Positions 9,245 through 26,148 of a DNA stretch of 49,087 nucleotides are shown here, one piece after another. Position 1 is the first letter of the stretch. Each line of letters begins with the position of its first letter. The position numbers and the translations under genes were made by a program. The notes beneath the pieces are model-generated. The model worked only from the letters and a program-made list of their open reading frames with translations, searched no databases and had not been told where the DNA came from. Source of the stretch: an uncultured Rhodospirillales bacterium (lineage in GTDB: Bacteria > Pseudomonadota > Alphaproteobacteria > CACIAM-22H2); NCBI GenBank assembly GCA_903860935.1, contig CAIOSQ010000274.1, positions 1-49,087 of the forward strand, given 5' to 3'.

Positions 9245-9309
9245 TGCGTGCGGCGCGGCACCTCTGATAGGATCGCATCCGTGAGGCGTCAGGCGGTGCG
9301 GCTTCGGCC

Positions 9310-10431: not shown

Positions 10432-10967
10432 TCCGCGCGGGGAGCATGGTCGCGCGCGTCGCTGCGCTTGGGCTGCTCGCGGGCTTCGCGGCGGCGCTCT
10501 GGGCCGGTCCGGTCGCGATCTATCGCGAGGCGCTTGACGCGTCGCACACCCGCGTCGCCCAGGCATCGGCGCTGGCGGCGCGCTATCGTCTCCTGGCCGC
10601 GGGGCCGCCCGATGGCGCGGTGCCGCGCGCGGCGTCCGGCCTTCTGCTTGCCGACCTGCCGGCCGCGCAGTCCTTCGCGGCGCTCAGCGAGACCATCAAG
10701 CAGGCCGCGGATGCGGCCGGTCTTGCGGTGCAGGGGCTGCAAGGCCTGGGCGAGGAGAGCGTCCTCGGCCTGCAGCGCAGCGGGGTGCGCGTGCGCGGCA
10801 CGGCCACGCTCGCCGGGCTGGCGCGGTTCCTGGCGACGGTGGAGGGCGGCATGCCGCTCCTGATCGTCGACGGGTTGCGCGTCCAGTCGCGCCAGGGGAC
10901 CGGCGCCACACAGGAGGAGCGACTGGAGATCCAGATGGACATCGTCGGCTTCCGGGAGCCGACATGA
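10428..10967 (+). CDS. gspM: GspM-like T2SS protein
   Basis: N-terminal TM, coiled region, L.RFL..VEGGMPLLIVDGL pattern; follows gspL with GTGA overlap. Confidence 0.75.
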   Translation: MIRAGSMVARVAALGLLAGFAAALWAGPVAIYREALDASHTRVAQASALAARYRLLAAGPPDGAVPRAASGLLLADLPAAQSFAALSETIKQAADAAGLAVQGLQGLGEESVLGLQRSGVRVRGTATLAGLARFLATVEGGMPLLIVDGLRVQSRQGTGATQEERLEIQMDIVGFREPT

Positions 10968-11401
10968 ACGGCGCGGCATCCACCGGCGCTCTTTTCGTCA
11001 TCGCGGCCCTGCTCGTCGGGGCGGCGGCGTGGCCATGGCTGGCGACCGAAACTCCGGTCGCGATCGCCGCGGCGCCTGGCGCCGCCGCGCCGGTCGCGCT
11101 GCCCGCCGTCGATCCGCAGGCTCTCGCGACCGTGCTGGAGCGCCCGCTGTTTTCCGCCGGTCGCCGTCCGGCTGCGGCCGAGGGGGGGGCGCCCGCCGCC
11201 GCGCCGCGGTCCGCGCTGCGTGTCGAGGGCGTGGTCGACGCGGGCGGCAGGCGCCGGGCCATTCTCCGGCGCGAAGGGAGCGCCGCCAGCCTGCACCTTG
11301 CCGAGGGCGACACGGTCGATGGATGGGTCGTGCGCGCGATCTCGCCGGACAGGGTCGTGCTCGTCTCGCCGGCCGGAGAACTCGTCCTGCCGGCGCGCTG
11401 A
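10964..11401 (+). CDS. XpsN/GspC-like T2SS accessory protein
   Basis: N-terminal TM, ERPLFSAGRRP, LRVEGVV, L.EGDTVDGWVVRAISPDRVVL. This gene normally precedes the secretin in Xanthomonas/Caulobacter-type clusters. Confidence 0.7.
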   Translation: MNGAASTGALFVIAALLVGAAAWPWLATETPVAIAAAPGAAAPVALPAVDPQALATVLERPLFSAGRRPAAAEGGAPAAAPRSALRVEGVVDAGGRRRAILRREGSAASLHLAEGDTVDGWVVRAISPDRVVLVSPAGELVLPAR

Positions 11402-11409: not shown

Positions 11410-13407
11410 TCACTCCGCCGCGTGGGCGGGCGACGCGCCCGGCGCGTCGTCGCGGCGCGGCCGACGCACGGGCAGCGCGACGCGCCAGCGGCGGTCGGCG
11501 AGGCCGGTCAGTCCGCCGATCGCCATCAGGCCGGCACCGATCCAGATCCAGGGGACCAGCGGCTTCCAATAGGCGCGTACAACCCAGCTTCCGGACGGAT
11601 CCGGATCGCCCAGCGCGACATAGACGTCCGACAGAAGGTTGGTGCGGATCGCGGTGTGGCTGGTGACGCGGCGCTGCACCGTGAACAGGCGCCGCTCCGG
11701 ATGAAGCGTCGCGATCGTCGTTCCGTCGCGCGACAGCGTGATCGTGGCACGGTCCGCGAGGTAGTTCTCGCCGGTGCGCTTGTCGACGGCCTCGAGCTTC
11801 AGCGCGTAGCCACCGATCTCCACCGTGTCGCCCGGGCGCATGGCCTGGATCCGCTCGACCTCCCAGGCCGAGGCGGCGATGCCGAAGGTCGTGATCGCGA
11901 CACCCAGATGCGCGAGCGCCATGCCATGGGCCGCCAGCGGCCGGTGGCGGGCGCGGCGCAGGCTCTCGGCCAGCGGCGCGCGGAAGAGATGGATGCGGTC
12001 CGCCCATTCGACCAGCACGCCGACGGCGAGCCAGCAGGCGAGGCCAAGCCCGCCGATGGCGAGAAGAGGACCACCGCCGGTGGCGTAGAGGGCGACGCCC
12101 ATCAGGACGATCGCTGCCGCGAAGGCGAGCCACAGGCGTTGCAGGGCCCCCAGCGCATCGCCGCGCTTCCAGCCGAGGAACGGACCGACCGCAAGCGCAA
12201 GCAGCAGCGGAACCATCAGCGGCGAGAACGTGGCGTTGAAGAAGGGCGGTCCGACCGAGATCTTGCCGCCGCCCATCACGTCGACGATCAGCGGGTAGAT
12301 GGTGCCGATGAAGACGGTCGCCGTGGCGGTCGAGAGCAGGAGGTTGTTGAGGACAATGGCGCCCTCGCGCGAGACCGGCGCGAAGATCCCGCCGCCGCGC
12401 AGCGACGGCGCGCGCAGAGCGTAGAGCGTGAACGAGCCGCCGATCGCGGCCCCGAGCAGCAGCAGGATGAAGCTTCCGCGCGCGGGATCGACGGCGAAGG
12501 CATGGACCGAGGTGAGGACGCCGGAGCGGACCAGGAACGTACCCACCAGGGACAGGCTGAAGGCGACGAGGGCCAGCAGGACCGTCCAGGTCTTCAGCGC
12601 CTCGCGCTTCTCCACCACGATCACGGAATGCATCAGCGCCGTGCCGACCAACCAGGGCATGAAGCTGGCGTTCTCGACCGGATCCCAGAACCACCAGCCG
12701 CCCCAGCCCAACGTGTAGTAGGCCCACCAACTGCCGGTGGCGATGCCGATGGTCAGCGGGATCCAGGCGGCAAGCGACCAGGCGCGGACCCAGCGCGCCC
12801 AGAGCGCGTCGACACGCCCTTCGAGCAGCGCGGCGACCGCGAAGGCGAAGGTGATCGAGTAGCCGACATAGCCGAGATAGAGGAAGGGCGGATGGAAGGC
12901 GAGGCCCGGATCCTGCAGGATCGGGTTGAGGCCGCGCCCGTCCGCGGGCACGGGGAAGACGCGCAGGAACGGGTTCGACGTGGCGAGGATGAAGATCCCG
13001 AAGCCGGTGGCCACCATGCCCTGGATCGCGAGCACCCGCGCGCGCAACGTCTGCGGCAGTTCCGCGCCGAACACCGCGACGGCCCCGCCGAACAGCGCGA
13101 GGATGAGGATCCAGAGCAGCATCGAGCCCTCATGGTTCCCCCAGACGCCGGTGATCTTGTAGAGCATCGGCTTCGTGCTGTGGCTGTTCTCGGCGACGTT
13201 CGCGAGCGAGAAATCCGAGGTCGCGTAGGCGTGGACGAGGGCGAGGAAGCTGAAGGCGACGAACCCCGCCTGGAGCAGGGCGGAGGGTTGTCCCACCGCC
13301 ATCAGGTTGGGGTCGCCGCGCTGCGCCCCCCAGAGCGGGACCACCGCCTGGACCAAGGCGAGCATGGTCGCGAGGATAAGCGCGAAATGTCCGAGTTCGG
13401 CGAGCAT
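11410..13407 (-). CDS. ccmF: Cytochrome c heme lyase CcmF/NrfE family
   Basis: MLAELGHFAL, WGNHEGS, LNPILQD...HPP, WWD motif WGGWWFWDPVENAS, RSGVLTSVHAFA. Confidence 0.97.
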   Translation of the reverse strand: MLAELGHFALILATMLALVQAVVPLWGAQRGDPNLMAVGQPSALLQAGFVAFSFLALVHAYATSDFSLANVAENSHSTKPMLYKITGVWGNHEGSMLLWILILALFGGAVAVFGAELPQTLRARVLAIQGMVATGFGIFILATSNPFLRVFPVPADGRGLNPILQDPGLAFHPPFLYLGYVGYSITFAFAVAALLEGRVDALWARWVRAWSLAAWIPLTIGIATGSWWAYYTLGWGGWWFWDPVENASFMPWLVGTALMHSVIVVEKREALKTWTVLLALVAFSLSLVGTFLVRSGVLTSVHAFAVDPARGSFILLLLGAAIGGSFTLYALRAPSLRGGGIFAPVSREGAIVLNNLLLSTATATVFIGTIYPLIVDVMGGGKISVGPPFFNATFSPLMVPLLLALAVGPFLGWKRGDALGALQRLWLAFAAAIVLMGVALYATGGGPLLAIGGLGLACWLAVGVLVEWADRIHLFRAPLAESLRRARHRPLAAHGMALAHLGVAITTFGIAASAWEVERIQAMRPGDTVEIGGYALKLEAVDKRTGENYLADRATITLSRDGTTIATLHPERRLFTVQRRVTSHTAIRTNLLSDVYVALGDPDPSGSWVVRAYWKPLVPWIWIGAGLMAIGGLTGLADRRWRVALPVRRPRRDDAPGASPAHAAE

Positions 13408-13418
13408 GCCTTATCGTA

Positions 13419-16400
13419 TCAGCGTCGCGTTGCAGCCGGCACGAAATCACCCGGCCGACCCGTGGGGGAGACCGCGTAGGGCTTGCCGTCGCGGTCGATA
13501 TAAAGGCGGCGCTGTTCCTCCAGGGTGAAGGGGCGGGATCCGATGCGCCCGAACACCGCCACCTGACCGCCGCTCTCGTCGACGCCGCGGTCGCGTTCCA
13601 GCCCCCGCGACAGCGACAGCGCGGGCGTGCGCGTCTTGCGCCAAGCCACCAACTCGGGCTTGGGCTCGGGCGAGAAGCCGTAGAAATTCGGCTGGCTGTC
13701 CGGCGAGGTCAGTTGCACGACCTTGAGCCCGTTGGCGCCATCCGCCACATAGGCGAAGGCCGAGGCGTTGGTCGCGCCGATCACCACGTCGCGCGCGTCG
13801 TTGAGGCGCCCGCCATCGGTGAAGCGCTGGTGGACGCGCGGATGCTCGGGGCGCTCGACGTCGACGATCACGAGGCCCTCGCGGCCAGCCGCCACGTAGG
13901 CATAGGTGCGGGCGACCATCATGCGGTGCGCGTCGGCCATCGGGAGATGCGCCGAGGGCACCGGGCGCGGCGTCGCCGGCGCGGTGACGTCGATCACGTG
14001 CATGCCCTTCGTGTCGAGCGCGAAGAGGTAGCGGAACTGGATGGCGGTCGACCGCAGATCCGCGAAGGGCAGCGTCGCGAGGACCTTCGGCTCCAGCGGC
14101 TTGTCCATGTCGAGGACGACCAGCCCGGCGCGTGCCGCGATATAGAAATACCGGCCGGCGATGGTCAGGTGACGGGCCCCGTCGAGGATGCCGCCCGCGT
14201 TCCAGGTCAAGGCGCGGCGCAGGAAGTTGTTGCGCGGCTCCCCGTCGGCCAGCGTGTTGACGTCGGTCAGGATCAGGCCTTCCACGGAATCCGTGATGAA
14301 GGCGTAGTCGTAGATCGGGTGGAAGGGCTGCTCCTGGTTGAGCTCCTGCATCTTCGGATCGGCGCCGCGCGCCGGATGGATCGGCTGCGTCGTCGGTAGC
14401 ACGACGCAGGTCGCGTCGCGCGAGGCGATATGCGTGTCGTGACCGAGCGCCGCGAAGGGCGCGGAGATGATCCGTTGCGATACGCCCTTGTTGGCGATGC
14501 TGGCGACGTCGTAGACGCGCATGCCGCTCGACCCTTCGGCGACGAAGAGATATTCGCCGCGCAGCTGCAGGCATCCGACCTGCGCCGCGGTGCCGCGCGT
14601 ATCGGTCTCGGCCAGGGCGCGGCCGCGCGCGAGATGCTCGCCGTACCATTTCGGATAGGCATAGCGGTGCAGGTAGCTGCCGATGACCGCCTGCGGCTCG
14701 TCCCATTCGGTGACGCGCACGGCCTCGAAGCTGCGCTCGCCGCCGACCCAGGCGTTGAGCCCGACCATGTTGACGTAGTTGGTCCCGTGCAGGAGCAGCT
14801 GCGCCATGATCGCGTTGTTGTCGTTGGCTTCGGAGATGTGGCAGTCGGCGCAGCCCTTGGTTTCCGTCAGACGCTCGGTATGCGGATAATGCGGCGCGAA
14901 GGCCTGGCTCGAATAGCCGGCCGCGGAGATCGGTGGCTGTTGCGCGTAGATCCGCTCGCGGTTGATGTTGGTCGAGGACAGGACCAGGGCCGAAGTCGAG
15001 CGGATCGGCGCGATGATGTTGCCCTTGATCGTGCCGTGCCGGCCGAGTTGGAACATGTCGTCGCGCGCGACCTGCGGATTGTAGGTGGCGTAGTTGCGCG
15101 TCTCGCCGCCCTCGTAGTGATGGCGCTCGGTCTTGAAATTCGCCTCGATCGGAAGATGGCAGCCGCCGCAGCTCGTCGTCCAGGAGAGGTGGCAGGTGTA
15201 GCAGGCCAGTTCTTCGTCCTTGTGGGCGAGATCCGCCGCCGGGATGCCGGGACCCCATTTCATGGAGCCGTCGTTGCTCATCAGCTTGGCGCGCGCGGAT
15301 TTCGCGTTGTACTTGGCGTTCGCCGGATCGACGCTGTCCTTGACCAGCGACACCTCCCATTCGAGGTCCGGATACAGCGACGACCGCTGGAAGAGCTTGC
15401 CGTCGATCCACTCGAAGCGGGGGCGGCCGAAGCTCGTGCGCATGAGCGACAGGTCGGTGCCGCCGGGCCGCGCCGCGGGACCGGAGGTCCGCAGGCTCGG
15501 ATAGGCTTTCGACGTGCCATGGCAATCGGCGCAGCCGATCTCGATCGCCGCGGCGACCTCGCCATAGATGTGGCCGTTGCCGTGGCTGTCCTGGGCGAAA
15601 TGGCAGTCGACGCAGTGCATGCCGGCATCGACATGGATCGACGACATGTGGACCGCCTTCTTGAACTTCTCGGGGTCCTCCGGCGGGATCACGTTGTCGG
15701 CGGCGTCGAGCAGGTTGCCCTTGCGGTCGCGCTTGTAGATGGCGCGGAAATTCCAGCCATGGCCGTGGTAATCGGCGAACTGCGTGTCCTTCAAGTCGGG
15801 ATTGAGGGCGCTGACCTCGCGCAGGAAGGCCGGATCCGCCCAATTGCCGCGGACTGACGCGCCCTCGGGGTTGCGCCGCAGGGTCTTGGCGATTTCTTCG
15901 TCGGTCGGGAATTTCTGCTCGGCCGGAAACATCTTCGGGGCGTCCGGCTCGTAGTCGTACATGGTGTAGCCGAGCATGCTGTTGAGGAAGATGTTCGGCT
16001 GGTGCATGTGGCAGATCATGCACTGGCTGGTCGGGATCGCTTTCGTGAACTCGTGCTTGAGCGGGTGGCCGGAGCGGTCATGCGGGATCGTCGGGTCGAC
16101 CGTCTTTGACGTGCCGCGATTGCCGAAGCGGGCGTAGGGGCCCGAATGCTTCACGTCGCGGTCGTTGGCGTAGACGACGTGGCACGACGCGCAGCCCGAG
16201 CTGCGATAGTCGCCCGGCTGGTCGTTGGTGCCGAGGAACCACATGAACGGGTCGTTCAGGCGCGTCTTGGTGATGTTGAGTACGGGGATCGCAACACGCA
16301 GACCGGTCGCGGGGCCGCGATTCGATTGCTTGAGATCGGGGCGTCCCGGCTCCTCCAGGCGCTGGATCTGGCCGGTCACGTTGGGCAGGCCGATTTCCGG

Positions 16401-17165
16401 GAACTGGGTCAGGATGTTGCGCCCGCCGCGCTCGAAGACGCGGAACACGTCGGCCGGCGGCGTCACTTCCCAGGCCGGGAGCGGATAGAGTTCTGGCAGC
16501 AATCCGCGGCTGCGGGTCAGTTCGGGGCTGGGCTTAACCGGGGCCACCAGCTTCGCGGGCTGTCCGTCGCGCGTGTAGCCCTCGCCAAGGAGGTAGTTTT
16601 TGAACGGCAGGATTCCGTTGTTGTAGGACGCGCCGCCCCAGAGCATGGCGCCGGTCGCCATCAGGCTGCGCTCGGCGGCCTGGATGACCGTGAGATGGCA
16701 CGCGCCGCAGGCCTCGCGCGCGACGCGGTAGTCGCTGGGGTTCACGAAGCGGATGTAGTCGGGCGATTCCTTGTTCAGCAGCGTGTAGCTGCGGATGGGG
16801 TTGGCGCTGCCCGAGGCGGTCCAGAATTCGGGCAGGCGCGGCTGGACATGCGCCTTCGCCATCGCGGCGCCATAGGCGGGGCCGTCCTTGCTGCTTCCGG
16901 CGGGACGCATGACGCCCGCGTCACCCCCATGACAATCCGCGCAGCCGAGGACGACGGCGGGATTGCTGTGCATGTTCGCGGAATCGGATTTCTCGTGGCA
17001 GGTGAGGCATCCGGCGCTCTTTTCCGCCGCGCGGTCGGGATGCTGCCGATCGGGAGCCGGCGGGAAGAGCGGTGCCGAGGCGACGCGCGGGCCAGGGCCA
17101 TCGGCCGCCCAGCTCGACGGAACCGCGAAGACGATCAGGAGGAGCGCGAGGAGGAGAAGGCGCAT
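13419..17165 (-). CDS. Large exported decaheme cytochrome c with C-terminal LVIVD-repeat (beta-propeller-like) domain, 1248 aa
   Basis: Sec signal (MRLLLLALLLIVFAVPSSWA). Ten CxxCH (CLTCH, CADCH, CGACH, CASCH, CMICH, CVDCH, CADCH, CYTCH, CGGCH, CADCH). Repeats GMRVYDV, GLILTDV, GLVVLDM, GMHVIDV, GLVIVDV, GLKVVQL. Confidence 0.9.
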   Translation of the reverse strand: MRLLLLALLLIVFAVPSSWAADGPGPRVASAPLFPPAPDRQHPDRAAEKSAGCLTCHEKSDSANMHSNPAVVLGCADCHGGDAGVMRPAGSSKDGPAYGAAMAKAHVQPRLPEFWTASGSANPIRSYTLLNKESPDYIRFVNPSDYRVAREACGACHLTVIQAAERSLMATGAMLWGGASYNNGILPFKNYLLGEGYTRDGQPAKLVAPVKPSPELTRSRGLLPELYPLPAWEVTPPADVFRVFERGGRNILTQFPEIGLPNVTGQIQRLEEPGRPDLKQSNRGPATGLRVAIPVLNITKTRLNDPFMWFLGTNDQPGDYRSSGCASCHVVYANDRDVKHSGPYARFGNRGTSKTVDPTIPHDRSGHPLKHEFTKAIPTSQCMICHMHQPNIFLNSMLGYTMYDYEPDAPKMFPAEQKFPTDEEIAKTLRRNPEGASVRGNWADPAFLREVSALNPDLKDTQFADYHGHGWNFRAIYKRDRKGNLLDAADNVIPPEDPEKFKKAVHMSSIHVDAGMHCVDCHFAQDSHGNGHIYGEVAAAIEIGCADCHGTSKAYPSLRTSGPAARPGGTDLSLMRTSFGRPRFEWIDGKLFQRSSLYPDLEWEVSLVKDSVDPANAKYNAKSARAKLMSNDGSMKWGPGIPAADLAHKDEELACYTCHLSWTTSCGGCHLPIEANFKTERHHYEGGETRNYATYNPQVARDDMFQLGRHGTIKGNIIAPIRSTSALVLSSTNINRERIYAQQPPISAAGYSSQAFAPHYPHTERLTETKGCADCHISEANDNNAIMAQLLLHGTNYVNMVGLNAWVGGERSFEAVRVTEWDEPQAVIGSYLHRYAYPKWYGEHLARGRALAETDTRGTAAQVGCLQLRGEYLFVAEGSSGMRVYDVASIANKGVSQRIISAPFAALGHDTHIASRDATCVVLPTTQPIHPARGADPKMQELNQEQPFHPIYDYAFITDSVEGLILTDVNTLADGEPRNNFLRRALTWNAGGILDGARHLTIAGRYFYIAARAGLVVLDMDKPLEPKVLATLPFADLRSTAIQFRYLFALDTKGMHVIDVTAPATPRPVPSAHLPMADAHRMMVARTYAYVAAGREGLVIVDVERPEHPRVHQRFTDGGRLNDARDVVIGATNASAFAYVADGANGLKVVQLTSPDSQPNFYGFSPEPKPELVAWRKTRTPALSLSRGLERDRGVDESGGQVAVFGRIGSRPFTLEEQRRLYIDRDGKPYAVSPTGRPGDFVPAATRR

Positions 17166-17167
17166 CG

Positions 17168-19009
17168 TCAGAAGGTCAGCACGAGGTTGCCGAGGACGGA
17201 ATAGAGGAGCTTTCCGTCGGACTGGGTGCCGTTCCCGGACGTGTCATAAAGCGCCTCCAGCCCCTTGCCCGGCACCAGGATGGCGCCGGACAGCCGCGCC
17301 ACCACGTTCTGCGTGAAATAGGGACGGTAGATCAGCGCCGCCGAGACTTCCCAGCCGATGGCGGTGTCGATCTTGCCCTGGTTGCGCAGATATTCCAGCG
17401 ACGACGTGTCGACGAAGCTCAGCCGGTTGAGGTTGGTCGACAGCCGCAGTTCCGGCAGCAGGTCCATGTCCGTCCCGACGCCGAGCAGATTGAGCCCGGG
17501 ATTGACGAAATTCGACTGGCCTTCGTCCTTCGACGACCGCAGCGCGGGCAGCAATCCGTTGCGCGGCGAGAGCGTGACGCCGCCGCCGCCGATCAGCGGC
17601 ATGGCCTGCCGGATCCAGTAGCTTGTGTCCGCGCCGGCGAAGACCGGGTTCTCGAAGATCGCATCGAAGCCTGTGGCCACGCGGTCGCGCGGGTTGCGAT
17701 CGCCGCTGGCATGCAGCCCGGACAGGCGCACGCGCAGCCAGTCGAAATCCATCGACGCCTCGGCTGCGCCGAAATAGGCGCGGATGTCCTGGGGCTTGTT
17801 GTTGCCGGCGAACTGGTTCCGCTCGTCGCGGCCCAGCGCGTAGTAGATCGAGGAGGTCAGGTTGATCCGGCCGAAATGCCCGTCGCCGTTGAAGCCGAAA
17901 TAATTGACGATGTAATCGCGCCCGCGCTGGTCGCCGATGGTCGCCGGCCGCACCAGGAAGCCGTTCTGGTCGTAGTGCTGGGTGTCGCCCTCGTTGTTGC
18001 GGTTGAGGACGTAGGTGATCTGCGATGTGTGACCGAGCACGGGCAGATCCTGGCCGTAGAGGTTCAAGATCGCGATGTCGTCGTTGCGCAGCGGCGCCGA
18101 GATGTCGTTGAGGCCGCTGTTGGTCTCTTTCTCGATGCGACGGAAATAGGCGGCATTGTACTGGAACCGGTTGTTGTAGCGGTTGCCGAAGAGCCGCACG
18201 CCGAGCTGGTTGTCCTGGAACAGGAAGCCGCGGAAATCGGTCGAGAAGGGCTGGATCCCGACCCGCAGCGAGTCGAAATCGTAGCGGTCGGAGACGTTGC
18301 GCAGGTGGTAGTCGACGAAGGCTTCCTGAAGCCCGGTGAACCCGTCGGTACGCTGGGTTCCACGCCCGGGATCCGCGAACAGGGCGCCGACCTCTTCCGC
18401 CTTGACCCGGTTGTAGTTGACGACCGGCGTCAGCCGGATCTCGAAATCGGGCGGCTTGAAGGCCGTGTTGCCCTTGATGAGCGCCACGCTGGCGATGACG
18501 CTCTGGCTGAACACGGTCTGGGTGTAGCGGCCGAAGGTGTTGTTGGCGCCGGGCGTGGCGGTGCCCTGGTTGCCGACGGGGATGGGGACGCGGCGCGGCT
18601 CGAAGATCGTATCCGAGATCGCCGTGAGACTGACGAACCAGTCCTCTCCGAAGACCGGCTTGTCGCCCTTGATCGTGTTCGTGTTGTAGGGGTCGTAGAG
18701 TTTCTCCGGACCGAGCAGCGTGTCGAGCAGGCGCCAGCGGTCGGGGATGGGAAGGAATTCGCGCGGCAGCACCGGCGCGGGCGGCGGGACGGCGTTGGGA
18801 TCCGTGACCGGCTCGACCCGATCCTGTGCCGCGGGTCTGGGGGCGGGCGCCTGAGCCGGACGACGGCGCGGATCCTCGCTCGCCTGGGCGAGTTCGCTGC
18901 CTTGCACCGGCGGCGCGGGCGGCGGCGGTGGCGGCGGCCAGGACCGAGCCAGCGCCGGAAGGCTCAGGCCGACAAGGAGCGCCGCGGCGGTGGCCGGGAT
19001 CGGTTTCAT
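17168..19009 (-). CDS. Putative outer-membrane beta-barrel protein (613 aa)
   Basis: Real start MKPIPATAAALLVGLSLPALA overlaps the upstream stop (ATGA). Signal peptide, Pro-rich linker, many amphipathic strands rich in N/D/G/aromatics, terminal ...GNLVLTF (BAM-type C-terminal Phe). Confidence 0.8.
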   Translation of the reverse strand: MKPIPATAAALLVGLSLPALARSWPPPPPPPAPPVQGSELAQASEDPRRRPAQAPAPRPAAQDRVEPVTDPNAVPPPAPVLPREFLPIPDRWRLLDTLLGPEKLYDPYNTNTIKGDKPVFGEDWFVSLTAISDTIFEPRRVPIPVGNQGTATPGANNTFGRYTQTVFSQSVIASVALIKGNTAFKPPDFEIRLTPVVNYNRVKAEEVGALFADPGRGTQRTDGFTGLQEAFVDYHLRNVSDRYDFDSLRVGIQPFSTDFRGFLFQDNQLGVRLFGNRYNNRFQYNAAYFRRIEKETNSGLNDISAPLRNDDIAILNLYGQDLPVLGHTSQITYVLNRNNEGDTQHYDQNGFLVRPATIGDQRGRDYIVNYFGFNGDGHFGRINLTSSIYYALGRDERNQFAGNNKPQDIRAYFGAAEASMDFDWLRVRLSGLHASGDRNPRDRVATGFDAIFENPVFAGADTSYWIRQAMPLIGGGGVTLSPRNGLLPALRSSKDEGQSNFVNPGLNLLGVGTDMDLLPELRLSTNLNRLSFVDTSSLEYLRNQGKIDTAIGWEVSAALIYRPYFTQNVVARLSGAILVPGKGLEALYDTSGNGTQSDGKLLYSVLGNLVLTF

Positions 19010-20877
19010 GGCAGGCATGGGCTCTGTTCCAGGGAATCCAGGAAGGGAGCGAAGGGGCAATTCACATAGCGCAGCCGCGTGCCCTGGGGCTCCAGCGTGT
19101 CGGCGCGCAGCGGCGCCTGGTTGAGCGTGCCGCCGGCATTCTGGATCGCCAGATAGGCGATCATGTCGTCCTGGTCGATGCCGTCGCCGGAGACGCCGAC
19201 CGCGCCGACCAGCGTCGCGCCGCGATAGACCGGCACGCCGCCGGCGAAGATCTGCAGCCCGTTGGCGAGGCGCGTGCGGCCATCCGAGGCGACCGCGAGC
19301 CCAGCCGCACCGGGTCCGGCGCAGCCGGAGGCGGGCGGAGCGTTGCCTCCGAGCAGGGCCACGATGTTGCCTGCGACGAGATCGAGTTGGAACCCCGTCG
19401 CGAAGGGGCTCCAGGTCGCGAAGGGACGGCTGAGCGGACCGCTGGGACCGGCATTGATGCCGTCCGGATAGAAGGGGCGCGCGATGTTGCCGATCGCACG
19501 CGTCGTGAAGGCGATCCCGTCGGCGAGGGCGCCCGCGCCGAGGAAGGCGCGCGTGTCGGTCACGGTGGTCGCGAAGCCGCCGCCGAGCGCGGTGAGCTCG
19601 GCGCCGGTCTGCGGGCGCGACAGGAAGGCCGCGGAGCGCGCCTTCTGCACCGCGACATCCGTGCCGAAGACCGGCGCGTCGGGCGTGCGGGCGAGGGCAA
19701 GGACGTTGCCGTCGGCGTCGACGACGCTGACCGTCACCTGCGCGAAGCTGTCGGTCGGCTTGCGGATCTGGGCGCGCGCCCGGAACGCCGTCTCCAGGCC
19801 GCGCTGGACGAGCAGCCTGGCCTCGTTGGCGGTAAGCCCCGCGCCGCCGGCCGGGGCGAGCCCGGCGCGCGGCGCGAAACGGTTCGCCCCCGTCCCATCG
19901 TCCAGGACGAAGGCATTCAGGCCCGGATAGGTCGTGCCATTGTCCGGCCGGATCCCGGACGCGATCGTCCCGTATTCCTGGCCGGCGCGGACCGTGCCGT
20001 CGAAATAGCCGGTGACCGCAACGGCCGCGAAGGCGCCGGGTGCGGCGACAGCGGCGGCGAGCGCATCGCTGTCGACATAGCGCAGGGACCGCCCGACCAC
20101 CGTGATGTTGTCGGCGCGGATGGAGCCGGCGGGCCGGAAACCGGACGTTCCGGCGATCGCGATCAGCTCGTCGGTGTCGGTATCGAAGTCGAAGATGTTG
20201 CGGTCGAGCGTGTAGACCCCGTCGGCGACGATGCCGATCCCGCCCACCGGGGTGCCGTTCTTGTACAGCGGCAATCCGCCGGGATCGGCGGCGAGACCGA
20301 GCGGCGAGCGCATCGGCCCCGCGCCCGGCGTCGCGCGCACGACGTCGGAACAGGGCAACTGGCTGAACTGCACGCCGAAGAGCGGCCCGCCCATCTGGTT
20401 GAGTTCGCCGGGCAGGAAGTTTTCCTGCACGATCTGGCTGGCCGTGCGCGTCGAGAAGGCATTGCCGCCGGAGGACAGATAGGCACCCGTGATCGCCTTC
20501 GCGATCGCGGCGAGTTCGCCCGGAACGTCCGCGTCCTCGAGGCCAGCCCCGGTGATGCCGCGCTGCGATGTCACCCGCGCCGTCGCCGGCGCGCCCGCCA
20601 TGCGTGTGACGGCGAGGACGTTGCCGACCCGGTCGACGACCGCGATCGTGGCGGGTCGGTTGCGCGCAGTCGCTTCGTTCATCGCCTGCAGCACGATCGT
20701 GTTGACGTTGGCGACGGTAAGGAAGGGTGCCGGATCGTTGCTGCTGGCCGGCACGGAATCGGGCGATCCGCCGCCGCCGCCGCCGCAGGATGGCGCGCCA
20801 AGGAACAGCGCCGCCAGGAGGCAGAGCGCCGGCGGCAGCATGCGCCTGCTGGCGCGCGATCCGGTTGGCGTGGACAA
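19006..20877 (-). CDS. Putative lipoprotein with two GlcG/HbpS-type heme-binding domains (start may be ATG at 20841)
   Basis: Hydrophobic leader ending APSC, then a GGGGGGS linker. Two copies of the family signature: IAVVDRVGNVL...AIAKA...GGLPLYKNGTPVGGIGI and VSVVDADGNVL...AVQKARSA...GGVPVYRGATLVGAVGVSG...DD. Confidence 0.85.
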   Translation of the reverse strand: MSTPTGSRASRRMLPPALCLLAALFLGAPSCGGGGGGSPDSVPASSNDPAPFLTVANVNTIVLQAMNEATARNRPATIAVVDRVGNVLAVTRMAGAPATARVTSQRGITGAGLEDADVPGELAAIAKAITGAYLSSGGNAFSTRTASQIVQENFLPGELNQMGGPLFGVQFSQLPCSDVVRATPGAGPMRSPLGLAADPGGLPLYKNGTPVGGIGIVADGVYTLDRNIFDFDTDTDELIAIAGTSGFRPAGSIRADNITVVGRSLRYVDSDALAAAVAAPGAFAAVAVTGYFDGTVRAGQEYGTIASGIRPDNGTTYPGLNAFVLDDGTGANRFAPRAGLAPAGGAGLTANEARLLVQRGLETAFRARAQIRKPTDSFAQVTVSVVDADGNVLALARTPDAPVFGTDVAVQKARSAAFLSRPQTGAELTALGGGFATTVTDTRAFLGAGALADGIAFTTRAIGNIARPFYPDGINAGPSGPLSRPFATWSPFATGFQLDLVAGNIVALLGGNAPPASGCAGPGAAGLAVASDGRTRLANGLQIFAGGVPVYRGATLVGAVGVSGDGIDQDDMIAYLAIQNAGGTLNQAPLRADTLEPQGTRLRYVNCPFAPFLDSLEQSPCLP

Positions 20878-20880
20878 GGT

Positions 20881-22557
20881 CTAGCGCTCCTGTCGGATCT
20901 TGGTCATCGGTGCCGTCCCGTGGATGTGGAACCCGTGGCAGGATGTGCAGTCGCTGGGGACTTTGAGGGTCGCGTTGGCGGCGCCATGGCAGGCGACGCA
21001 GGTGCCGAGATCGGGTATCAGCACGTCGCTGCTGCTGGTCGACTGCTCGGCCTTGTGGCACTCGCCGCAGCCCATTGTAAAGTGCTGACCGTGGTCGAAG
21101 CGCGTCTTGGGAAGATGGCTGTCGAGCACGATGACGGGTTCGATCGAGACCGTCGCACCTTTGCGCGTGGCGATATGACACGAGGCGCAGCCGCGCCGCG
21201 GATCGAAGACGAGGTCGACGGCGGCGTCGACGCGCTGCTGGACCCAGGCACGCAGTTCCAGGCGCTCCGCCTCGGTCACGGGCTGACCGACCCGCAGGCG
21301 CGGCAGGCCCGCGGCGATCTCGGCGTCGCCGCCCTCGAGCGCGATGCGCGCATAGGCGTCGCGCAGATAGGCGTGCACGGCCTCGGGGTCGCCATGCGGA
21401 ACCGTGCGCTCGGGCGCCTTCGGGTCGAATTTCAGCGTGTGGCACCAGCCGCAATCGGTTTCGAAGCGCGTCGGCATGAAGCCCTGGCGACCGGCATCCG
21501 GGGCATGGCAGCTGGCGCAGTCGAGCTTGACCAGCCCTTTGGGCGACAGCACGCCACCCGTCTTGAGATGCGCGTCATGCGGGAATTTGAGCGTCGCGAG
21601 GTTCTTCGGCGGGGTCGGGCCGCTCAGGTCGACGCGTTCGAGGACCGGCCCCGTCGTGTCCTTCACGACGGTGACGCGGAAGGGCGGGTGGCCATCCGGG
21701 AAGCCGGTGACCGCGCGCAGATGGCTTCCCGCCATGCGTCCGTCGCCACCCGTATGGCAGTCTGTGCACAGACGGTCGTCGCGCAGGATCGACGCCTGGG
21801 CGCCGCGATGCTCGGTGTGGCAGTCGCCGCAGCCGGCATTGTCCAGCCCCGCCTTGCGCACCGCGTCGCCGATCGCATGGCCGGGCAGTCCGGTATGGCA
21901 TGCCGCGCAGGCCGAATCCGGCACCGAGGCGAAGGCCCGCTGGTGGCAGGCGCCGCAATCGGCGGCGAAGTGCTTATGGGCGTCGGAGATCTCGCCGACG
22001 GTCCAGCTGAGATCGGCGACGCGGGTCCAGCCTGGCTTCGGCACCGCATGGTCCGCACGTTGCGGGCCCCAGCCGAGGAAGCTTCCGACTGGAATGGCGA
22101 GGCCGAAAACGACCAGGAGCAGGAACAGCATCCAGGACGGCAGGCGTTTGCCCAGCCGGGTCCGCTCCAGCCCGATGCGGCTGGTCTTGCGCAGCCGGGC
22201 GAGATCGTCGCCCGGCGGATCGACCAACTCGATCGCGATCGCGGCGTCGTATCCCGCGCCTGGCGTATCGAGCGTCAGCTTGTAGGGGCCGATCCGGATC
22301 TCGTCGCCGGACACGACGAGGGCATTGGTCGTGGACTTGCCGTTGACGCGCACGTCGCCCGGCGCGGTCGCGCGCAGCCGCATGCCGCCGGCGTCCGGCG
22401 ACAGCTCGGCGGCGATCAGCGCGACGCGCAGGTCGGGCAGGCCGACCTCGTTGCCGGGGCCGCGCCCGAGATGCAGGACCGGCGCATCGGCTTCCGCCGT
22501 CCGCCGCGCGGGAGCGCCGCGTTCGCGCCGGGTGATGTAGCCGAGTTCAGCGCGCAT
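20881..22557 (-). CDS. Membrane-anchored decaheme cytochrome c (c3-like) with N-terminal FHA-like domain
   Basis: LHLGRGPGNEV...VRVNG...L.SGDEIRIGPY (FHA-like), one TM (WMLFLLLVVFGLAIPVG), then ten CxxCH (CGACH, CAACH, CGDCH, CTDCH, CASCH, CGWCH, CASCH, CGECH, CVACH, CTSCH) with FPHDAH/FDHGQH distal-His motifs. Confidence 0.88.
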   Translation of the reverse strand: MRAELGYITRRERGAPARRTAEADAPVLHLGRGPGNEVGLPDLRVALIAAELSPDAGGMRLRATAPGDVRVNGKSTTNALVVSGDEIRIGPYKLTLDTPGAGYDAAIAIELVDPPGDDLARLRKTSRIGLERTRLGKRLPSWMLFLLLVVFGLAIPVGSFLGWGPQRADHAVPKPGWTRVADLSWTVGEISDAHKHFAADCGACHQRAFASVPDSACAACHTGLPGHAIGDAVRKAGLDNAGCGDCHTEHRGAQASILRDDRLCTDCHTGGDGRMAGSHLRAVTGFPDGHPPFRVTVVKDTTGPVLERVDLSGPTPPKNLATLKFPHDAHLKTGGVLSPKGLVKLDCASCHAPDAGRQGFMPTRFETDCGWCHTLKFDPKAPERTVPHGDPEAVHAYLRDAYARIALEGGDAEIAAGLPRLRVGQPVTEAERLELRAWVQQRVDAAVDLVFDPRRGCASCHIATRKGATVSIEPVIVLDSHLPKTRFDHGQHFTMGCGECHKAEQSTSSSDVLIPDLGTCVACHGAANATLKVPSDCTSCHGFHIHGTAPMTKIRQER

Positions 22558-22581
22558 CGGTTCCCGCCCCCCGCCGCACCG

Positions 22582-23466
22582 TCAGAAGTAGAAGAAGACG
22601 GCGACGACATGCGCCGTCAGGGCCGCCAGCAGGGCGAAGGACAGCGGCACGTGCAGATAGAGCCAGATGTCCATAAGCGCCTTGTAGCGGAGGTCGCGGC
22701 TGATCACGTCGAGATACTCCAGCCGCTCGCCGAGCAGGCCAAGGACGCGCTGCGCCTGTGCGCGCTGCTCGGGCACCGCGTCGGCGGCCGTGATGCGCCG
22801 CAGGGCGAGGCGCGTCGCGCAGTTCGGGCGCGTGCCGGAGAGCTGGCGCCATGCCGAGCCGCCGATCGCTACCTGGTTCATCGCCGCGAGGACGAGGCCC
22901 GCCTGCCGGTCGTCGAGACCAAGGGCGGCCTGACGCATGTCACCGTCGAGCGCGGCGATCTTCGCCATCAGATCGGACACCGTCGCGCCATGGCGGTTGC
23001 GGGTCATCTGCTCCGGCACCGCGGCATAGACGATCATGCCGAAGGCGCCGCTCGCGATCACCGCCATCATCAGCGCATAGGCGAGGGTGTGGATGTTGAG
23101 GCCGAACTCGAAGCCGGTATGCAGCGTCGCCACGACGATCAGCGCGAGGCCGAGATAGACATGCGCCGACAGCCAGCCCTGCAGGCGTCCGATGCGGCCG
23201 TAGGAGCGCTTGCGCATCCCGAACCACATCAACCAGAGGATCAGCGCGGCGCCGATCGTCCCCAGCGTGTACCCGAGCCAGGTGCCGCCGTTGGGCGCGG
23301 TGAGCGGGCGATGCAGTGCGTAGGCCAGGATGGTCGCGAGGCACAGCCAGATGCCCCATTTCAGGAAGCGGAACCCGCGATAGGCCAGGAAGGACTGGTG
23401 GATCTCGCCCGGGGGGATCCGCTTGCCGGCCGCGGCGGCGCCCGGCTTGGCCGTCGCGGCGCTCAC
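22582..23466 (-). CDS. Integral membrane protein, putative di-heme b cytochrome (ferric-reductase-like transmembrane domain)
   Basis: GTG start overlaps the upstream stop. About 5 TM segments. Two His pairs separated by 13 residues in TM helices: HVYLGLALIVVATLH and HVPLSFALLAALTAH. Confidence 0.75.
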   Translation of the reverse strand: MSAATAKPGAAAAGKRIPPGEIHQSFLAYRGFRFLKWGIWLCLATILAYALHRPLTAPNGGTWLGYTLGTIGAALILWLMWFGMRKRSYGRIGRLQGWLSAHVYLGLALIVVATLHTGFEFGLNIHTLAYALMMAVIASGAFGMIVYAAVPEQMTRNRHGATVSDLMAKIAALDGDMRQAALGLDDRQAGLVLAAMNQVAIGGSAWRQLSGTRPNCATRLALRRITAADAVPEQRAQAQRVLGLLGERLEYLDVISRDLRYKALMDIWLYLHVPLSFALLAALTAHVVAVFFYF

Positions 23467-25868
23467 GAGGCACCTCCGCGACGGATCATGGCGACGTATT
23501 CCTCTGGCCGCACGCGGATCGCCGCGCCGGTCGGACATGCACGCACGCAGGCCGCGCCACCTTCGATGCCATGGCACATGTCGCACTTCACCGCTTTCTT
23601 GCGGCTGGACTCGCCGCCATGGTGCTTCTTCGCCGCCTTGTTCTCTCCGGGGCCCGGGCCGCGGCCGAAGAACAGCCAGCTCAGCAGGCCGGGCTTTTCT
23701 TCCGCCGGAGCGGCCATCTTGATCACGCCATAGGGGCAGTTGCGCTCGCAATTGCCGCAGCCGATGCAGGTGTCGGCGATCGTCACCTCGCCGCTGGGCG
23801 CGCGCTTGATCGCGTCGGGCGGGCATTCCTTCATGCAACTCGGATGCTCGCAGTGGCGGCATGAGGTCGGCACGTGGATCGAGGCGAAGGTGGCCCCGGC
23901 CTCGCGATCCAGCCGCGAGATCCGGTCATGCGTCTCGGCGCAGGCCTTCTCGCAATTGTCGCAGCGGATGCACAGCGTCTCGTCGATCAGCAGCACGTCG
24001 GTGGCTTCGCCGAGGCCCTCGCGCATGAGGAAGTTGACGAGGGCACCGCTTTCGCTGTCGGCGGTCTGATGCGCGCTGCTGCGCACGCGCTCGCTGAATT
24101 TTTCCTCCACCCGGCGCCGCAATTCGGGGGCCGCGTCCAGCAGGTCTCGCACCGCGGCCGCAGGCAGCTTGATCACCTGGGTGGCCACGGCGGCCTTGAC
24201 CGATGCCGTGCGCGGCGCGTTGCGCAGCAGGGCCATCTCGCCGACATAGTTGCCCGCCGCGAGATAGGTGAGGACGACTTCCTGACCGCCGACCATGCGG
24301 GAGACCAGCACCGATCCCGAGCGGATCAGGTACATCGCGTCGTCGGTGGCACCTTCCTGGATCAGGATCTCGCCGGCCTTGAGCGAGACGATCTCCGCCT
24401 CGCGGATCACCGGCGCCAGGATGGCGCTGTCGAGATCCTGGCCGAGATAGCTCTTCACCACGCGCACGATCGCGACCTCGTCGATCGCGCGCGCCACGCT
24501 CGGCACCGAGCGCTGCAGTCGCAGCATGGTGTTGCGCGGCACCTCGAGCAGCAGCGCGCCATCGCGCGCGATCACCGTCGCGCCGCGACGGCGGCCCGAG
24601 AGGAGGCCGATCTCGCCGAAGAATTCGCCGCCGCGCAGCACCGGGTTTGCTGGCGCGCCGGCCTCGCCGATCAGAACCTCCACGCTGCCGTCGACGATGG
24701 CGTAGAAGCTGTTGGTGTAGTCGTTGCGCTCGAAGATCTTCTGTCCTGGCGCGGCCAGATGGACCTCCGATGTCAGGAGGAATTCGCGGATCTGCAGCGG
24801 CGAGAGTTCCGCGAAGACCGGCACCTGCTCGCGGATCGTCGCGATGAACGGGCTGACCGCGAGGCCGGGTTGCGCGGCGTCGAGCTTGGCCTGGATCAGC
24901 GGTTCGTCGGCCGGCGCCACCGGGTTGCCGAGGATGTACTCGACGACCTCGTAGCCCTGGTTCATGCATTGCTTGATCAGCGGATAGCCGGCCAGCGCGC
25001 CGATGATGTAGAGGCCGGGCACATTGGATTCGTAATGGTCGCTGACGACCGGGAAGGCCGACGGGCTGTCGCTTCCGAACACGATGCCGCAGGATTCGAC
25101 GAATTTGCGCGGCGGCAAGGCGCCGAGCCGCGCGATGACGCGGTCGCACCGGATTCGTGTCTCGCCATCCGCCGTGTCGACGGTCATCCAGCCTGGTTCG
25201 AGGCGCTTGGGCGCGGTGCGGACCATCGCCTGCATACGGCCGTCGGCGATCGCCGTCTGGAGGAGCTGGACGTTGGCCGGTTTGGCGTTGGGATACTCTG
25301 CACCGCGGTTGAGGATCGTCACCGTGTTGGCGTTGGACAGGACGAGGGCGTTCTCGATGCCGGCGTCGCCGGTGCCGACGACCACGATATGCTCGTCCTG
25401 GAATTCGTCGGGATCGTCCAACTGGTACTGGACGGACGGCAACTCGGCCCCGGGCACCGTGAGCTTGCGCAGATTGCCCTGGAGACCGATCGCGAGCACG
25501 ACCGCGCGCGCGCGCACGACGCTGCGATCGGCGAGGGTGAGGCGGAAATCGCCGCGTTCGCCCTTGATGCCGACGACCTCCGCGTTGAGCCGCACGTTGC
25601 ATCCTGCCGCCTCGACGCCGCGATCCCAGGTCTCCAGCACGGTCTCGCGCGAACCCTCGGCGAAGCCGACATCGGCGCGCAGCGGCAGGATGTCCGGCGT
25701 CGCCATGACGTGCTTGCGCCGCTGGTACTTGTAGATCGTGTCCGACAGGTGCCCGGTGCGCTCGAGCAAAACGTGGCTGACGCCGCGCGCGGCGGCCCTG
25801 GTGACCGCGGCGATCCCGCCCGGCCCCGAGCCGACAATGGCAATTTCGAAGATGTCGTCGCCGCTCAT
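23463..25868 (-). CDS. Fusion: TrxR-fold FAD/NAD(P)H oxidoreductase + two cNMP-binding domains + 4x[4Fe-4S] ferredoxin (DmsB/NrfC-like)
   Basis: GSGPGG FAD motif, GTGDAG dinucleotide motif, SNVPGLYIIG. Cassettes FFGEIGLL....RGATV and YVGEMALL....RTASV. Cys sets CIRCDNCEKAC, CRHCEHPSCMKECP, CIGCGNCERNCP, KCDMC...CVRACP. GGAGG RBS before the ATG at 25868. Confidence 0.92.
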   Translation of the reverse strand: MSGDDIFEIAIVGSGPGGIAAVTRAAARGVSHVLLERTGHLSDTIYKYQRRKHVMATPDILPLRADVGFAEGSRETVLETWDRGVEAAGCNVRLNAEVVGIKGERGDFRLTLADRSVVRARAVVLAIGLQGNLRKLTVPGAELPSVQYQLDDPDEFQDEHIVVVGTGDAGIENALVLSNANTVTILNRGAEYPNAKPANVQLLQTAIADGRMQAMVRTAPKRLEPGWMTVDTADGETRIRCDRVIARLGALPPRKFVESCGIVFGSDSPSAFPVVSDHYESNVPGLYIIGALAGYPLIKQCMNQGYEVVEYILGNPVAPADEPLIQAKLDAAQPGLAVSPFIATIREQVPVFAELSPLQIREFLLTSEVHLAAPGQKIFERNDYTNSFYAIVDGSVEVLIGEAGAPANPVLRGGEFFGEIGLLSGRRRGATVIARDGALLLEVPRNTMLRLQRSVPSVARAIDEVAIVRVVKSYLGQDLDSAILAPVIREAEIVSLKAGEILIQEGATDDAMYLIRSGSVLVSRMVGGQEVVLTYLAAGNYVGEMALLRNAPRTASVKAAVATQVIKLPAAAVRDLLDAAPELRRRVEEKFSERVRSSAHQTADSESGALVNFLMREGLGEATDVLLIDETLCIRCDNCEKACAETHDRISRLDREAGATFASIHVPTSCRHCEHPSCMKECPPDAIKRAPSGEVTIADTCIGCGNCERNCPYGVIKMAAPAEEKPGLLSWLFFGRGPGPGENKAAKKHHGGESSRKKAVKCDMCHGIEGGAACVRACPTGAAIRVRPEEYVAMIRRGGAS

Positions 25869-25881
25869 CGCTGCCTCCACG

Positions 25882-25946
25882 CATCCCCTGCCGCCAGCCA
25901 TCCCTGCCGCCAGCCATCCCTGCCGCCAGCCATCCCTGCCGCCAGC
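25882..25946. repeat. Tandem repeat, 4 x 16 bp (CATCCCTGCCGCCAGC)
   Basis: Copies at 25882-25898 (one extra C), 25899-25914, 25915-25930 and 25931-25946, read directly. Confidence 0.95.
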
Positions 25947-26148
25947 ACGATTTACGCCCGCCCGCGGGCCTCACGCGCCGTCCATCTCTGGCCGCGCGCG
26001 CGGGATCGTCGGCCCATGTGCCGGCATGTCGCAGGCAACAGGTTATTGCGTGTGGCGATTCCGGAAAAGGATTTAGCGAACTTGCCCGGTGTCCTGCATT
26101 CGACCGACATTGGCGGCTGCCATGCATCCAGCACGCCGGAGCCCGCCA

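Follow-up and report, generated by a model that had tools for sequence, protein, structure and literature searches.

The window analysed here, i.e. the whole 49,087-nucleotide stretch, is contig C274 of an assembled genome of an uncultured Rhodospirillales bacterium (GCA_903860935.1; 4.59 Mb in 468 contigs) and has a G+C content of approximately 70%. It harbors a cluster of seven genes on the minus strand, designated g1 to g7 in the order of transcription (from position 25868 down to 11410), together with an eighth member, g8, added in the present analysis. The cluster is proposed to encode a two-module system by which reducing power from cytoplasmic NAD(P)H would be exported, under cyclic-nucleotide control, to a large decaheme protein at the outer membrane. 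The open reading frame (ORF) list places all seven genes on the minus strand with the same coordinates as in the first-pass annotation, and the ORF coordinates and junction sequences confirmed the compact organization described there, with co-oriented genes showing overlaps or gaps of less than 25 bp. In particular, g1 and g2 overlap by one base, g4 and g5 overlap by 4 bp (ATGA), and the g2/g3, g5/g6 and g6/g7 gaps measure 24, 2 and 11 bp, respectively; the g3/g4 gap is 3 bp with a TTG start at 20877, or 39 bp with the alternative ATG start at 20841. All seven frames exhibit the high third-position G+C pattern of coding sequences. The domain make-up initially assigned to g1–g7 was borne out by Pfam and NCBIfam matches and by motif counts, the FHA match of the window copy being weak. 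While all seven genes thus proved genuine, the membership of the cluster was incomplete, as the conserved gene g8 (1397–2707, minus strand) had been overlooked.

The product of g1 (23463–25868, minus strand) is cytoplasmic and joins a TrxR/YpdA-like NAD(P)H flavoprotein to two cyclic nucleotide monophosphate (cNMP)-binding domains and a HycB-like ferredoxin part bearing four [4Fe-4S] motifs. Pfam analysis recognized Pyr_redox_3 (E 5e-28), cNMP_binding twice (E 9e-37) and, in addition, Fer4 domains; the PDB matches comprised YpdA/Bdr (E 4e-22), HycB (E 1e-16), PKA regulatory subunits and TrxR-like ferredoxin-NADP reductases; the N-terminal half of the protein resembles YpdA/Bdr and the TrxR-like ferredoxin-NADP reductases, and the C-terminal part resembles HycB. 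No transmembrane (TM) helix was predicted in g1. The alignment of 24 sequences revealed 16 invariant Cys residues belonging to the four ferredoxin-type motifs. It also revealed the retention of both cNMP phosphate-binding cassettes, which typically consist of Gly-Glu and Arg-(Ser/Thr)-Ala: G429-E430 and R437-R439 in the first domain, and G554-E555 and R564, A566, T567 in the second, are invariant or nearly so. The longest g1 ORF starts at 25901; the alignment of orthologs favors position 25868, and the start originally chosen is retained on this ground. The ortholog at locus L032:2510-4984 (plus strand) carries an in-frame stop at residue 554, within the second cNMP cassette, and is either a pseudogene or an assembly error.

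Gene g2 (22582–23463, minus strand) encodes a 293-aa inner-membrane protein with five helices and two predicted b hemes. It gave no Pfam match at E ≤ 0.01, the ferric-reductase transmembrane domain (PF01794) included; a weak cytochrome b561 match in one ortholog (E 0.002) was below the cut-off, and the geometry of the g2 His pairs is like that of the ferric-reductase domain. Hydropathy peaks at residues ~33–56, 63–81, 96–124, 131–149 and 272–290 correspond to five TM helices, within which two H-x13-H pairs are found. These pairs form part of W-x3-H-x13-H motifs on helix 3 (W97/H101/H115) and helix 5 (W267/H271/H285), while helix 4 bears an SGxxG motif (S138, G139, G142); the motif residues are invariant or nearly so in the alignment, and H101, H115, H271 and H285 are conserved in 98–100% of 50 sequences. 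In the number of helices and in the placing of both motif types, g2 displays the full signature that He et al. 2017 (PMC5566968) give for the IMP family of PCC3/PCC4, and it is assigned to this family. The counts of Lys and Arg place the N-terminus and the loops 82–95 and 150–271 on the inside and, since these positive-inside counts give one His pair per membrane leaflet, a stack of two b hemes spanning the membrane is predicted for g2.

Gene g3 (20881–22557, minus strand) encodes a protein composed of a cytoplasmic FHA-like domain, one TM helix (residues 137–165) and a periplasmic decaheme part. Its ten CXXCH motifs recur in 55 of 56 complete orthologs, so that the heme count is not a matter of chance, and the density of about 39 aa per heme is wire-like. 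The FHA domain of the window copy gave no Pfam match at E ≤ 0.01; this part of the protein matches the GarA structure (E 0.0015), and among 26 orthologs Pfam recognized FHA in 20 and Yop-YscD_cpl in 22. FHA domains bind phosphothreonine through Gly-Arg and Ser-x-x-His motifs, and in the g3 family G31-R32 is invariant, with Ala as the consensus at the Ser position. The overlooked g8, found through all-against-all clustering of the ORFs of the 80 loci described below, encodes a 436-aa exported c554-like cytochrome, matching Cytochrome_C554 in Pfam (E 5e-10) and the PDB structure of cytochrome c554, 1bvb (E 5e-5). Four CXXCH motifs are present in 50 of 50 orthologs, and a CX4CH motif occurs in the window copy and in all 14 N-termini examined; with four CXXCH plus one CX4CH, g8 is probably a pentaheme protein. 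Together with g1 and g2, these two cytochromes make up what is referred to here as the inner module.

The outer module consists of g4, g5 and g6. Gene g4 (19006–20877, minus strand) encodes an exported double GlcG/HbpS-like protein without a single histidine, with three stretches matched by the HbpS-like Pfam family (E 4e-23) and with PDB matches to 2a2l, EfgA/GlcG and the PduO C-terminal domain. A lipobox-like motif was detected in 57 of 73 orthologs, that of the window copy being non-canonical, and g4 is probably a lipoprotein. The product of g5 (17168–19009, minus strand) is probably an outer-membrane beta-barrel of the wider alginate-export-like group, extended at the N-terminus by a proline-rich stretch on the periplasmic side. 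It possesses a signal peptide, no Cys, 13 segments of alternating hydrophobicity in a crude, uncalibrated scan, and an aromatic last residue (Y or F) in 80 of 80 orthologs; signal peptide, C-terminal aromatic residue and amphipathic segments are the general marks of an outer-membrane barrel. No Pfam match was obtained for the window copy, nor any relative in a PDB search. The Atlas neighbors of g5 are named 'Alginate export family protein', and one neighbor cluster, with a score of 0.95, is 100% PF13372 (Alginate_exp); the nearest source-named relative (79% identity) belongs to a 'Rhodospirillales bacterium' assembly. Pfam analysis of ten long g5 relatives detected AMIN/SH3 in one and HEAT in another, and no fusion to g4 or to a cytochrome among the ten.

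Gene g6 (13419–17165, minus strand) encodes a protein of 1248 aa, in which an exported decaheme domain is followed by an LVIVD beta-propeller (LVIVD E 4e-15, with a local ExtM match, in Pfam/NCBIfam). A PDB search with g6 returned no relative. Ten CXXCH motifs are found in the window copy and in 67 of 70 complete orthologs, which again excludes a chance count. The mean column identity reaches 64% (25 sequences), with 14 further invariant His residues and an invariant Cys pair in the propeller, and the heme density is about 81 aa per heme; judged by this density and by the extra invariant residues, g6 looks more like an enzyme than a wire. The signal peptide is plain, and a lipobox-like motif occurs in just 6 of 78 orthologs. 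Among the Atlas neighbors, Planctomycetota, Acidobacteriota and Verrucomicrobiota contribute large, unnamed clusters of shorter proteins (~700–1000 aa) that combine LVIVD with a cytochrome, and the LVIVD-cytochrome superfamily extends well past the cluster type studied here.

A profile of 30 g5 relatives recovered more than 580 confirmed loci in species-representative genomes, of which the best 80 were kept; they belong to alpha-, beta- and gammaproteobacteria, many are cut by contig ends, and their genes were counted by tblastn. Among them, g4 and g5 were found in all 80 loci, g6 in 79, g3 in 62, g2 in 56, g1 in 55 and CcmF in 10, while g8 adjoins the cluster in 51. The order of the genes varies between lineages: betaproteobacterial loci such as L037 show the order g2-g3-g4-g5-g6-g8-g1, and in sphingomonad-like loci a g8-g4-g5-g6 block opposes g1–g3 on the other strand. 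In an even phylum sample of 401 genomes, g5 was present in nine (~2%), all nine of which possess a g2 ortholog at E <1e-98. Five further loci with full 10-kb flanks are devoid of g1 and g2 (L007 keeps g3), and in each of these five genomes g2 is located elsewhere. Overall, 14 of the 14 tested genomes with the barrel g5 also have g2, and the genes stay together across three proteobacterial classes, as expected from the first-pass annotation; since every g5 genome tested holds g2, the objection that the genes fail to co-occur does not stand. Cultured carriers among the loci include strains of Novosphingobium (e.g. sp. BL-8A), Undibacterium (sp. SXout7W), Colwellia (sp. BRX10-3), Sediminihaliea (S. 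albiluteola) and Hyphococcus, and the carrier genera (Novosphingobium, Lysobacter, Undibacterium, Colwellia) are presumably aerobic heterotrophs of soil, fresh water and sea. Both g5 and g6 represent large families, comprising at least 7,999 and at least 7,990 clusters at 90% identity, respectively, with 1,928 clusters at 50% identity matched by the g5 profile; these families are entirely unnamed, 'hypothetical protein' being the sole source name for relatives of g6.

The inner module has close counterparts in published clusters. PCC4 comprises a porin, cytochromes with 4, 5 and 10 hemes and the IMP, preceded in one subgroup by an FeS gene, and was found in iron-oxidizing Zetaproteobacteria (PMC5566968). 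The ptdABCDEFG cluster includes a cNMP plus 4Fe-4S protein and a ferric-reductase-like membrane protein among its content, with PtdA described as a pentaheme with a beta-sandwich and PtdB as a porin (bioRxiv 10.1101/2023.11.21.568154). Judged by these descriptions, PCC4 and ptdABCDEFG are the same cluster, and both are known from sequence only. The C-terminal half of g1, g2, g3 and g8 are homologous to PtdE, PtdF, PtdG and PtdD, respectively. Four ptd-type loci carrying distant g2 relatives (L088, L092, L094 and L097) gave tblastn matches to g8, to g1 residues 421–808, to g2 and to g3, except that g2 had no match in L097. The ptd gene set of L094 was confirmed by Pfam, and g8 is similar to the gene in the PtdD position of the ptd-type loci. 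Like the cluster studied here, PCC4/ptd thus has a cNMP plus 4Fe-4S protein before the IMP and a decaheme after it, a small c554-like cytochrome, an NAD-binding flavoprotein and a barrel gene. The differences concern the flavoprotein and the outer parts. In the present cluster the flavoprotein is Pyr_redox_3/YpdA-like and fused to the cNMP-FeS protein, whereas that of L094 is a separate, unrelated FNR-like protein with a 2Fe-2S domain (PtdC). The g5 barrel shows no homology to the porin-position (PtdB) protein of L094 (hhalign probability 0.1%), and g6 shares with its PtdA-position cytochrome only a heme motif of 37 columns (hhalign probability 26%). Moreover, the ptd-type loci lack counterparts of the double GlcG protein and of the LVIVD propeller, and g8 has five heme motifs compared with four in its PCC4/ptd counterpart.

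A second relative has been reported in Ferrigenium straubiae, where a trio of genes for a [4Fe-4S] protein, a protein with five helices and an FHA-nonaheme cytochrome was transcribed in every condition that its authors tested. The authors report no motif in the five-helix protein and favor quinone reduction (bioRxiv 10.64898/2026.01.22.701106). Compared by description only, the trio is like g2, g3 and the [4Fe-4S] part of g1, including the cytoplasmic FHA domain, but has nine hemes instead of ten, and the accessible description mentions no flavin, cNMP, barrel or propeller genes. For the LVIVD-decaheme outer module, no description was found in the literature searched, subscription journals being mostly outside the search. 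The first-pass annotation had presented the cluster as a candidate new system. This was overstated for the inner part, which shares the IMP family of PCC3/PCC4 and the PCC4/ptd and Ferrigenium layout; judged from homology, the inner module is already in print as an uncharacterized family and the families of the outer module are without a characterized member. The accompanying statement that the architecture is not that of a characterized system stands, as the matching published clusters all lack experimental characterization.

Two observations connect the flavoprotein to the membrane hemes. Firstly, locus L086:3850-7206 (plus strand) contains a single 1118-aa ORF comprising all g1 domains followed by g2, with the FHA-decaheme gene next, and the same long g1-g2 frame occurs in three genomes of one genus (also G018 and G182). 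Seven longer database proteins, all singletons, likewise join g2 to Fer4 or to FHA/cytochrome parts. Secondly, the sister ptd-type locus L094 has an unrelated flavoprotein (FAD_binding_6/NAD_binding_1/Fer2) beside the same cNMP-Fer4/IMP/multiheme core. Because of the g1-g2 fusion and of the occurrence of two unrelated NAD-binding flavoproteins with the same core, NAD(P)H appears to be tied to the membrane hemes, which agrees with the direct NAD(P)H input, via flavin and FeS clusters to a two-heme membrane protein, predicted at first annotation.

The second-messenger control suggested in the same annotation is consistent with the conservation of both cNMP cassettes and with the neighborhood of the cluster. 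Genes for a CHASE2-adenylate/guanylate cyclase lie near it in 4 of the 80 loci (L074:16674-18959, L048, L040 and L055), genes for a Metallophos (calcineurin-like) phosphoesterase in five (L074:15771-16640, L035, L051, L055 and L063), and L037:19408-21575 encodes a class II cAMP phosphodiesterase, the only one in the 80 loci, together with a cNMP-binding MscS channel. Candidate cyclase and phosphodiesterase genes of these three kinds cover 8 of the 80 loci, and provide modest further support for cNMP control.

Taken together, these data point, with moderate confidence, to a two-module system exporting cytoplasmic reducing power from NAD(P)H to g6. In the proposed mechanism, NAD(P)H would reduce the flavin of g1, from which electrons would travel along the four [4Fe-4S] clusters of the ferredoxin part, reach the b heme of g2 nearer the cytoplasm, and go on to the b heme on the periplasmic side and to g3, acting as a membrane-anchored decaheme wire. 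As a putative soluble partner of the inner module, g8 would receive electrons from g3 and hand them to g6, unless g3 and g6 come into direct contact. At the outer membrane, g6 would act as the terminal oxidoreductase, in concert with the probable barrel g5 and with g4, the GlcG-like putative lipoprotein. The cNMP domains could gate the flow in response to cAMP/cGMP, because they are placed between the flavin and FeS parts of g1, and the FHA-like domain of g3 may serve as a second cytoplasmic control or docking point. The outward direction is suggested by redox potentials and by the lack of a coupling element. Moreover, since electrons would exit the negative-inside cell with no proton-pumping element, a regulated reductase or electron outlet appears likelier than an energy-conserving chain.

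Several observations weigh against this reading. The usual Ser of the phosphothreonine-binding motif is missing from the consensus of the g3 FHA-like domain. The barrel g5 has no Pfam match itself, and Alginate_exp (PF13372) is matched, weakly, by only 2 of 30 members of its family (best E 0.0024). The length of g5 suggests a barrel smaller than MtrB, presumably one that may be too narrow for a cytochrome. The seven fused g2 proteins may be gene-calling or sequencing errors, because neighboring genes often share a frame, and cNMP-turnover genes are not found near the cluster in 72 of the 80 loci, nor in the window. Finally, the two modules are separable and, for this reason, perhaps not one machine: g1–g3 type modules occur in genomes G042 and G018, in neither of which g6 was found, the inner and outer modules lie 675 kb apart in G320 and 0.3–1.7 Mb apart in G407 and G409, and they occupy opposite strands in several genomes. 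Such separations, and the association of the inner module with a different outer module in the ptd-type loci, would be expected if g1–g3 (with or without g8) and g4–g6 were two independent neighboring systems whose adjacency reflects co-transfer. This explanation is considered very improbable, given that the inner module is present in 14 of 14 genomes with the outer module, that translational coupling within a single operon is seen in the window and at many of the loci, and that g8 shifts between modules across lineages.

The direction of flow proposed here is opposite to that drawn by He et al. (PMC5566968) and by the Ferrigenium authors (bioRxiv 10.64898/2026.01.22.701106), who let electrons run from outside to the quinone pool; this, too, counts against an outward route. 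Applied to the present cluster, such uptake would mean that an external or periplasmic donor, e.g. Fe(II) or Mn(II), is oxidized and that electrons pass through g6, g8 and g3 to g2, which reduces quinone, with g1 as a regulator or a minor branch. That model was drawn for PCC3/PCC4, whose IMP family includes g2, and likewise for the partly similar Ferrigenium nonaheme trio, and iron-oxidizing Zetaproteobacteria do carry PCC4 (PMC5566968). However, a complete NAD(P)H-flavin-4x[4Fe-4S] protein adjoins g2 or is fused to it, and the occurrence of two unrelated NAD-binding flavoproteins with the same core would be difficult to account for if NAD(P)H had no part in the system. Reduction of NAD(P)+ with electrons from Fe(II) would also be thermodynamically uphill. 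No quinone site is known for g2, and the carrier genera are presumably aerobic heterotrophs. On balance, electron uptake is regarded as quite improbable, and the export of reducing power from NAD(P)H is preferred.

As to the outer membrane, the first-pass annotation had set the cluster beside MtrCAB as an envelope-spanning conduit, and the cluster does resemble MtrCAB/Pcc in placing genes for multiheme cytochromes next to that of an outer-membrane barrel, a probable one here; weak matches to MtrC/MtrF domain II/IV were also obtained in 9 of 26 g3 orthologs and in g8. Nevertheless, a conduit of this type was overstated. In contrast to MtrCAB, g5 has no MtrB-type barrel match in Pfam, and g6 has no MtrC-family match, is not a lipoprotein decaheme, as the lipid anchor is mostly missing, and carries a propeller at a low, enzyme-like heme density. 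The input differs as well, being quinol via CymA or NapC in MtrCAB and, as proposed here, NAD(P)H via FeS clusters and heme b.

It is accordingly conceivable that no electrons cross the outer membrane at all, and that g6 is a periplasmic enzyme held by g4 and g5, with g5 as an AlgE-like channel for the entry or exit of its substrate or product. This alternative shares the inner-membrane mechanism described above and differs in the last step alone. It would suit the plain signal peptide of g6 with its rare lipobox, the 81 aa per heme and the many additional invariant His, Met and acidic residues of this protein, and the lack of conservation of secretion genes nearby, these being present in 1 of 80 loci. 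It would also suit g5, whose nearest named relatives are alginate-export-like barrels, i.e. 18-stranded channels, and one relative of which carries periplasmic AMIN and SH3 domains. On the other hand, type II secretion operons adjoin or interrupt the cluster in the window and in L010, LVIVD repeats are typical of cell-surface proteins, no substrate can be named, and a dedicated barrel is seldom needed for small solutes. A purely periplasmic enzyme is therefore judged somewhat unlikely, and a terminal oxidoreductase at the outer membrane is retained as the preferred function of g6.

Among known systems, an analogy to the proposed export is offered by NOX/FRE and Fre-MsrQ-MsrP. There, electrons from an NAD(P)H-oxidizing flavoprotein in the cytoplasm enter b hemes, two or one in number, which are coordinated by pairs of His residues from two helices and reduce a partner on the trans side. 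The present cluster differs in that FeS clusters (four) and cNMP domains are interposed and that a series of c hemes would serve as the acceptor. As a regulated reductase or electron outlet, the system is more likely to resemble NOX/FRE or Fre-MsrQ-MsrP than an energy-conserving respiratory chain. The Tmc/Hmc complexes of sulfate reducers also bring together a multiheme cytochrome in the periplasm, a cytochrome b in the membrane and an FeS protein on the cytoplasmic side, and weak TmcA and HmcB NCBIfam matches were observed in cluster proteins; however, these complexes have no barrel, and their cytoplasmic subunits are HdrD-like, without flavin and cNMP domains. A more specific proposal, tentative and on present evidence unlikely, is that the cluster is a widespread bacterial counterpart of eukaryotic NADPH oxidase/ferric reductase spanning the Gram-negative envelope, in which a cAMP/cGMP signal would cause NADPH to be spent, with no energy conserved, to charge the decaheme-propeller enzyme, located at the surface or in the periplasm. 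This enzyme would then serve in reductive iron acquisition or in the deliberate generation of reactive oxygen species outside the cell. Extracellular superoxide is released by many aerobic heterotrophs among the bacteria and, if the latter proposal is true, the cluster could be the unidentified enzyme behind it.

Multiheme envelope systems are usually linked with anaerobic metal respiration or iron oxidation. If the proposed export is true, ordinary aerobes would possess a version fed by NAD(P)H and gated by a second messenger, which would shift where electron export is sought, and would supply the orphan PCC4/ptd and Ferrigenium clusters with a testable input mechanism. As the carriers include cultured strains, genetics is feasible.

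The last of the seven genes, g7 (11410–13407, minus strand), encodes a second heme lyase subunit of the CcmF/NrfE family, with matches to CcmF_C (E 4e-115) and Cytochrom_C_asm (E 5e-51) in Pfam. It scored 658.6 bits with TIGR00353 (cut-off 569) and 662 with the NrfE-specific model, below the cut-off of 927 of that model. A housekeeping ccmDE-F-G-H set sits on contig C252 of the same genome. Gene g7 is therefore an additional paralog of the ccmF in that set, the product of which (G000:C252) is 60% identical to that of g7. The first-pass annotation had credited the cluster with its own heme lyase, a view not upheld by the comparison of the 80 loci: a CcmF gene immediately after g6 was seen only in this window, and ccm genes near the cluster, found in 10 of 80 loci, are located upstream on the other strand. 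At L037:3-5021 (minus strand) an entire ccm operon lies beside the cluster. Of five ccm-linked genomes tested, two also have ResB (System II), and in these the sole CcmE (System I) adjoins the cluster; the two genomes, G401 and G405, are one Undibacterium strain and one assembly labeled Gammaproteobacteria. System I genes may thus travel with the cluster, and a special need in heme maturation, perhaps for the CX4CH site of g8, is plausible.

Between g7 and g8, the window contains a type II secretion operon (2707–11401, plus strand) encoding a prepilin peptidase, GspE, GspF, pseudopilins, K, L, M and C, which divides g8 from the other cluster genes. This operon includes no secretin gene in the window, and the sole secretin match of the genome is on contig C31. 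A GspF gene was found near the cluster in only 1 of the 80 other loci, and a link between type II secretion and the cluster was set aside on this basis. On the opposite side, a gene of the histone-deacetylase family (26100–27077, plus strand), divergent from g1, marks the edge of the cluster. It forms the 3' part of a 1067-aa open frame (23874–27077, plus strand), the remainder of which is probably non-coding, a shadow cast by the G+C-rich genes of the other strand. An Rfam scan upstream of g1 found nothing, and the promoter and terminator scans remained at chance level (0 found versus 1.0 expected, and 7 versus 6.5, respectively).

The 10-kb core of the cluster (14001–24000) is contained near-identically in 14 sequencing runs from 10 studies, of a kind listed as 'DNA?' and labeled lake water (4), fungus metagenome (2), freshwater (1), subsurface (1) and 'organism A' (3), with three unlabeled. 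Among riverine metatranscriptomes, two runs share 0.24–0.25 of the sampled words of the same interval and four more share 0.10–0.16, which is not counted as expression. Finally, at 7 of the 80 loci (L028, L031, L032, L033, L041, L060 and L080), the 10 kb around the cluster include a gene for an NAD(P)H-producing Glu/Leu/Phe/Val dehydrogenase.

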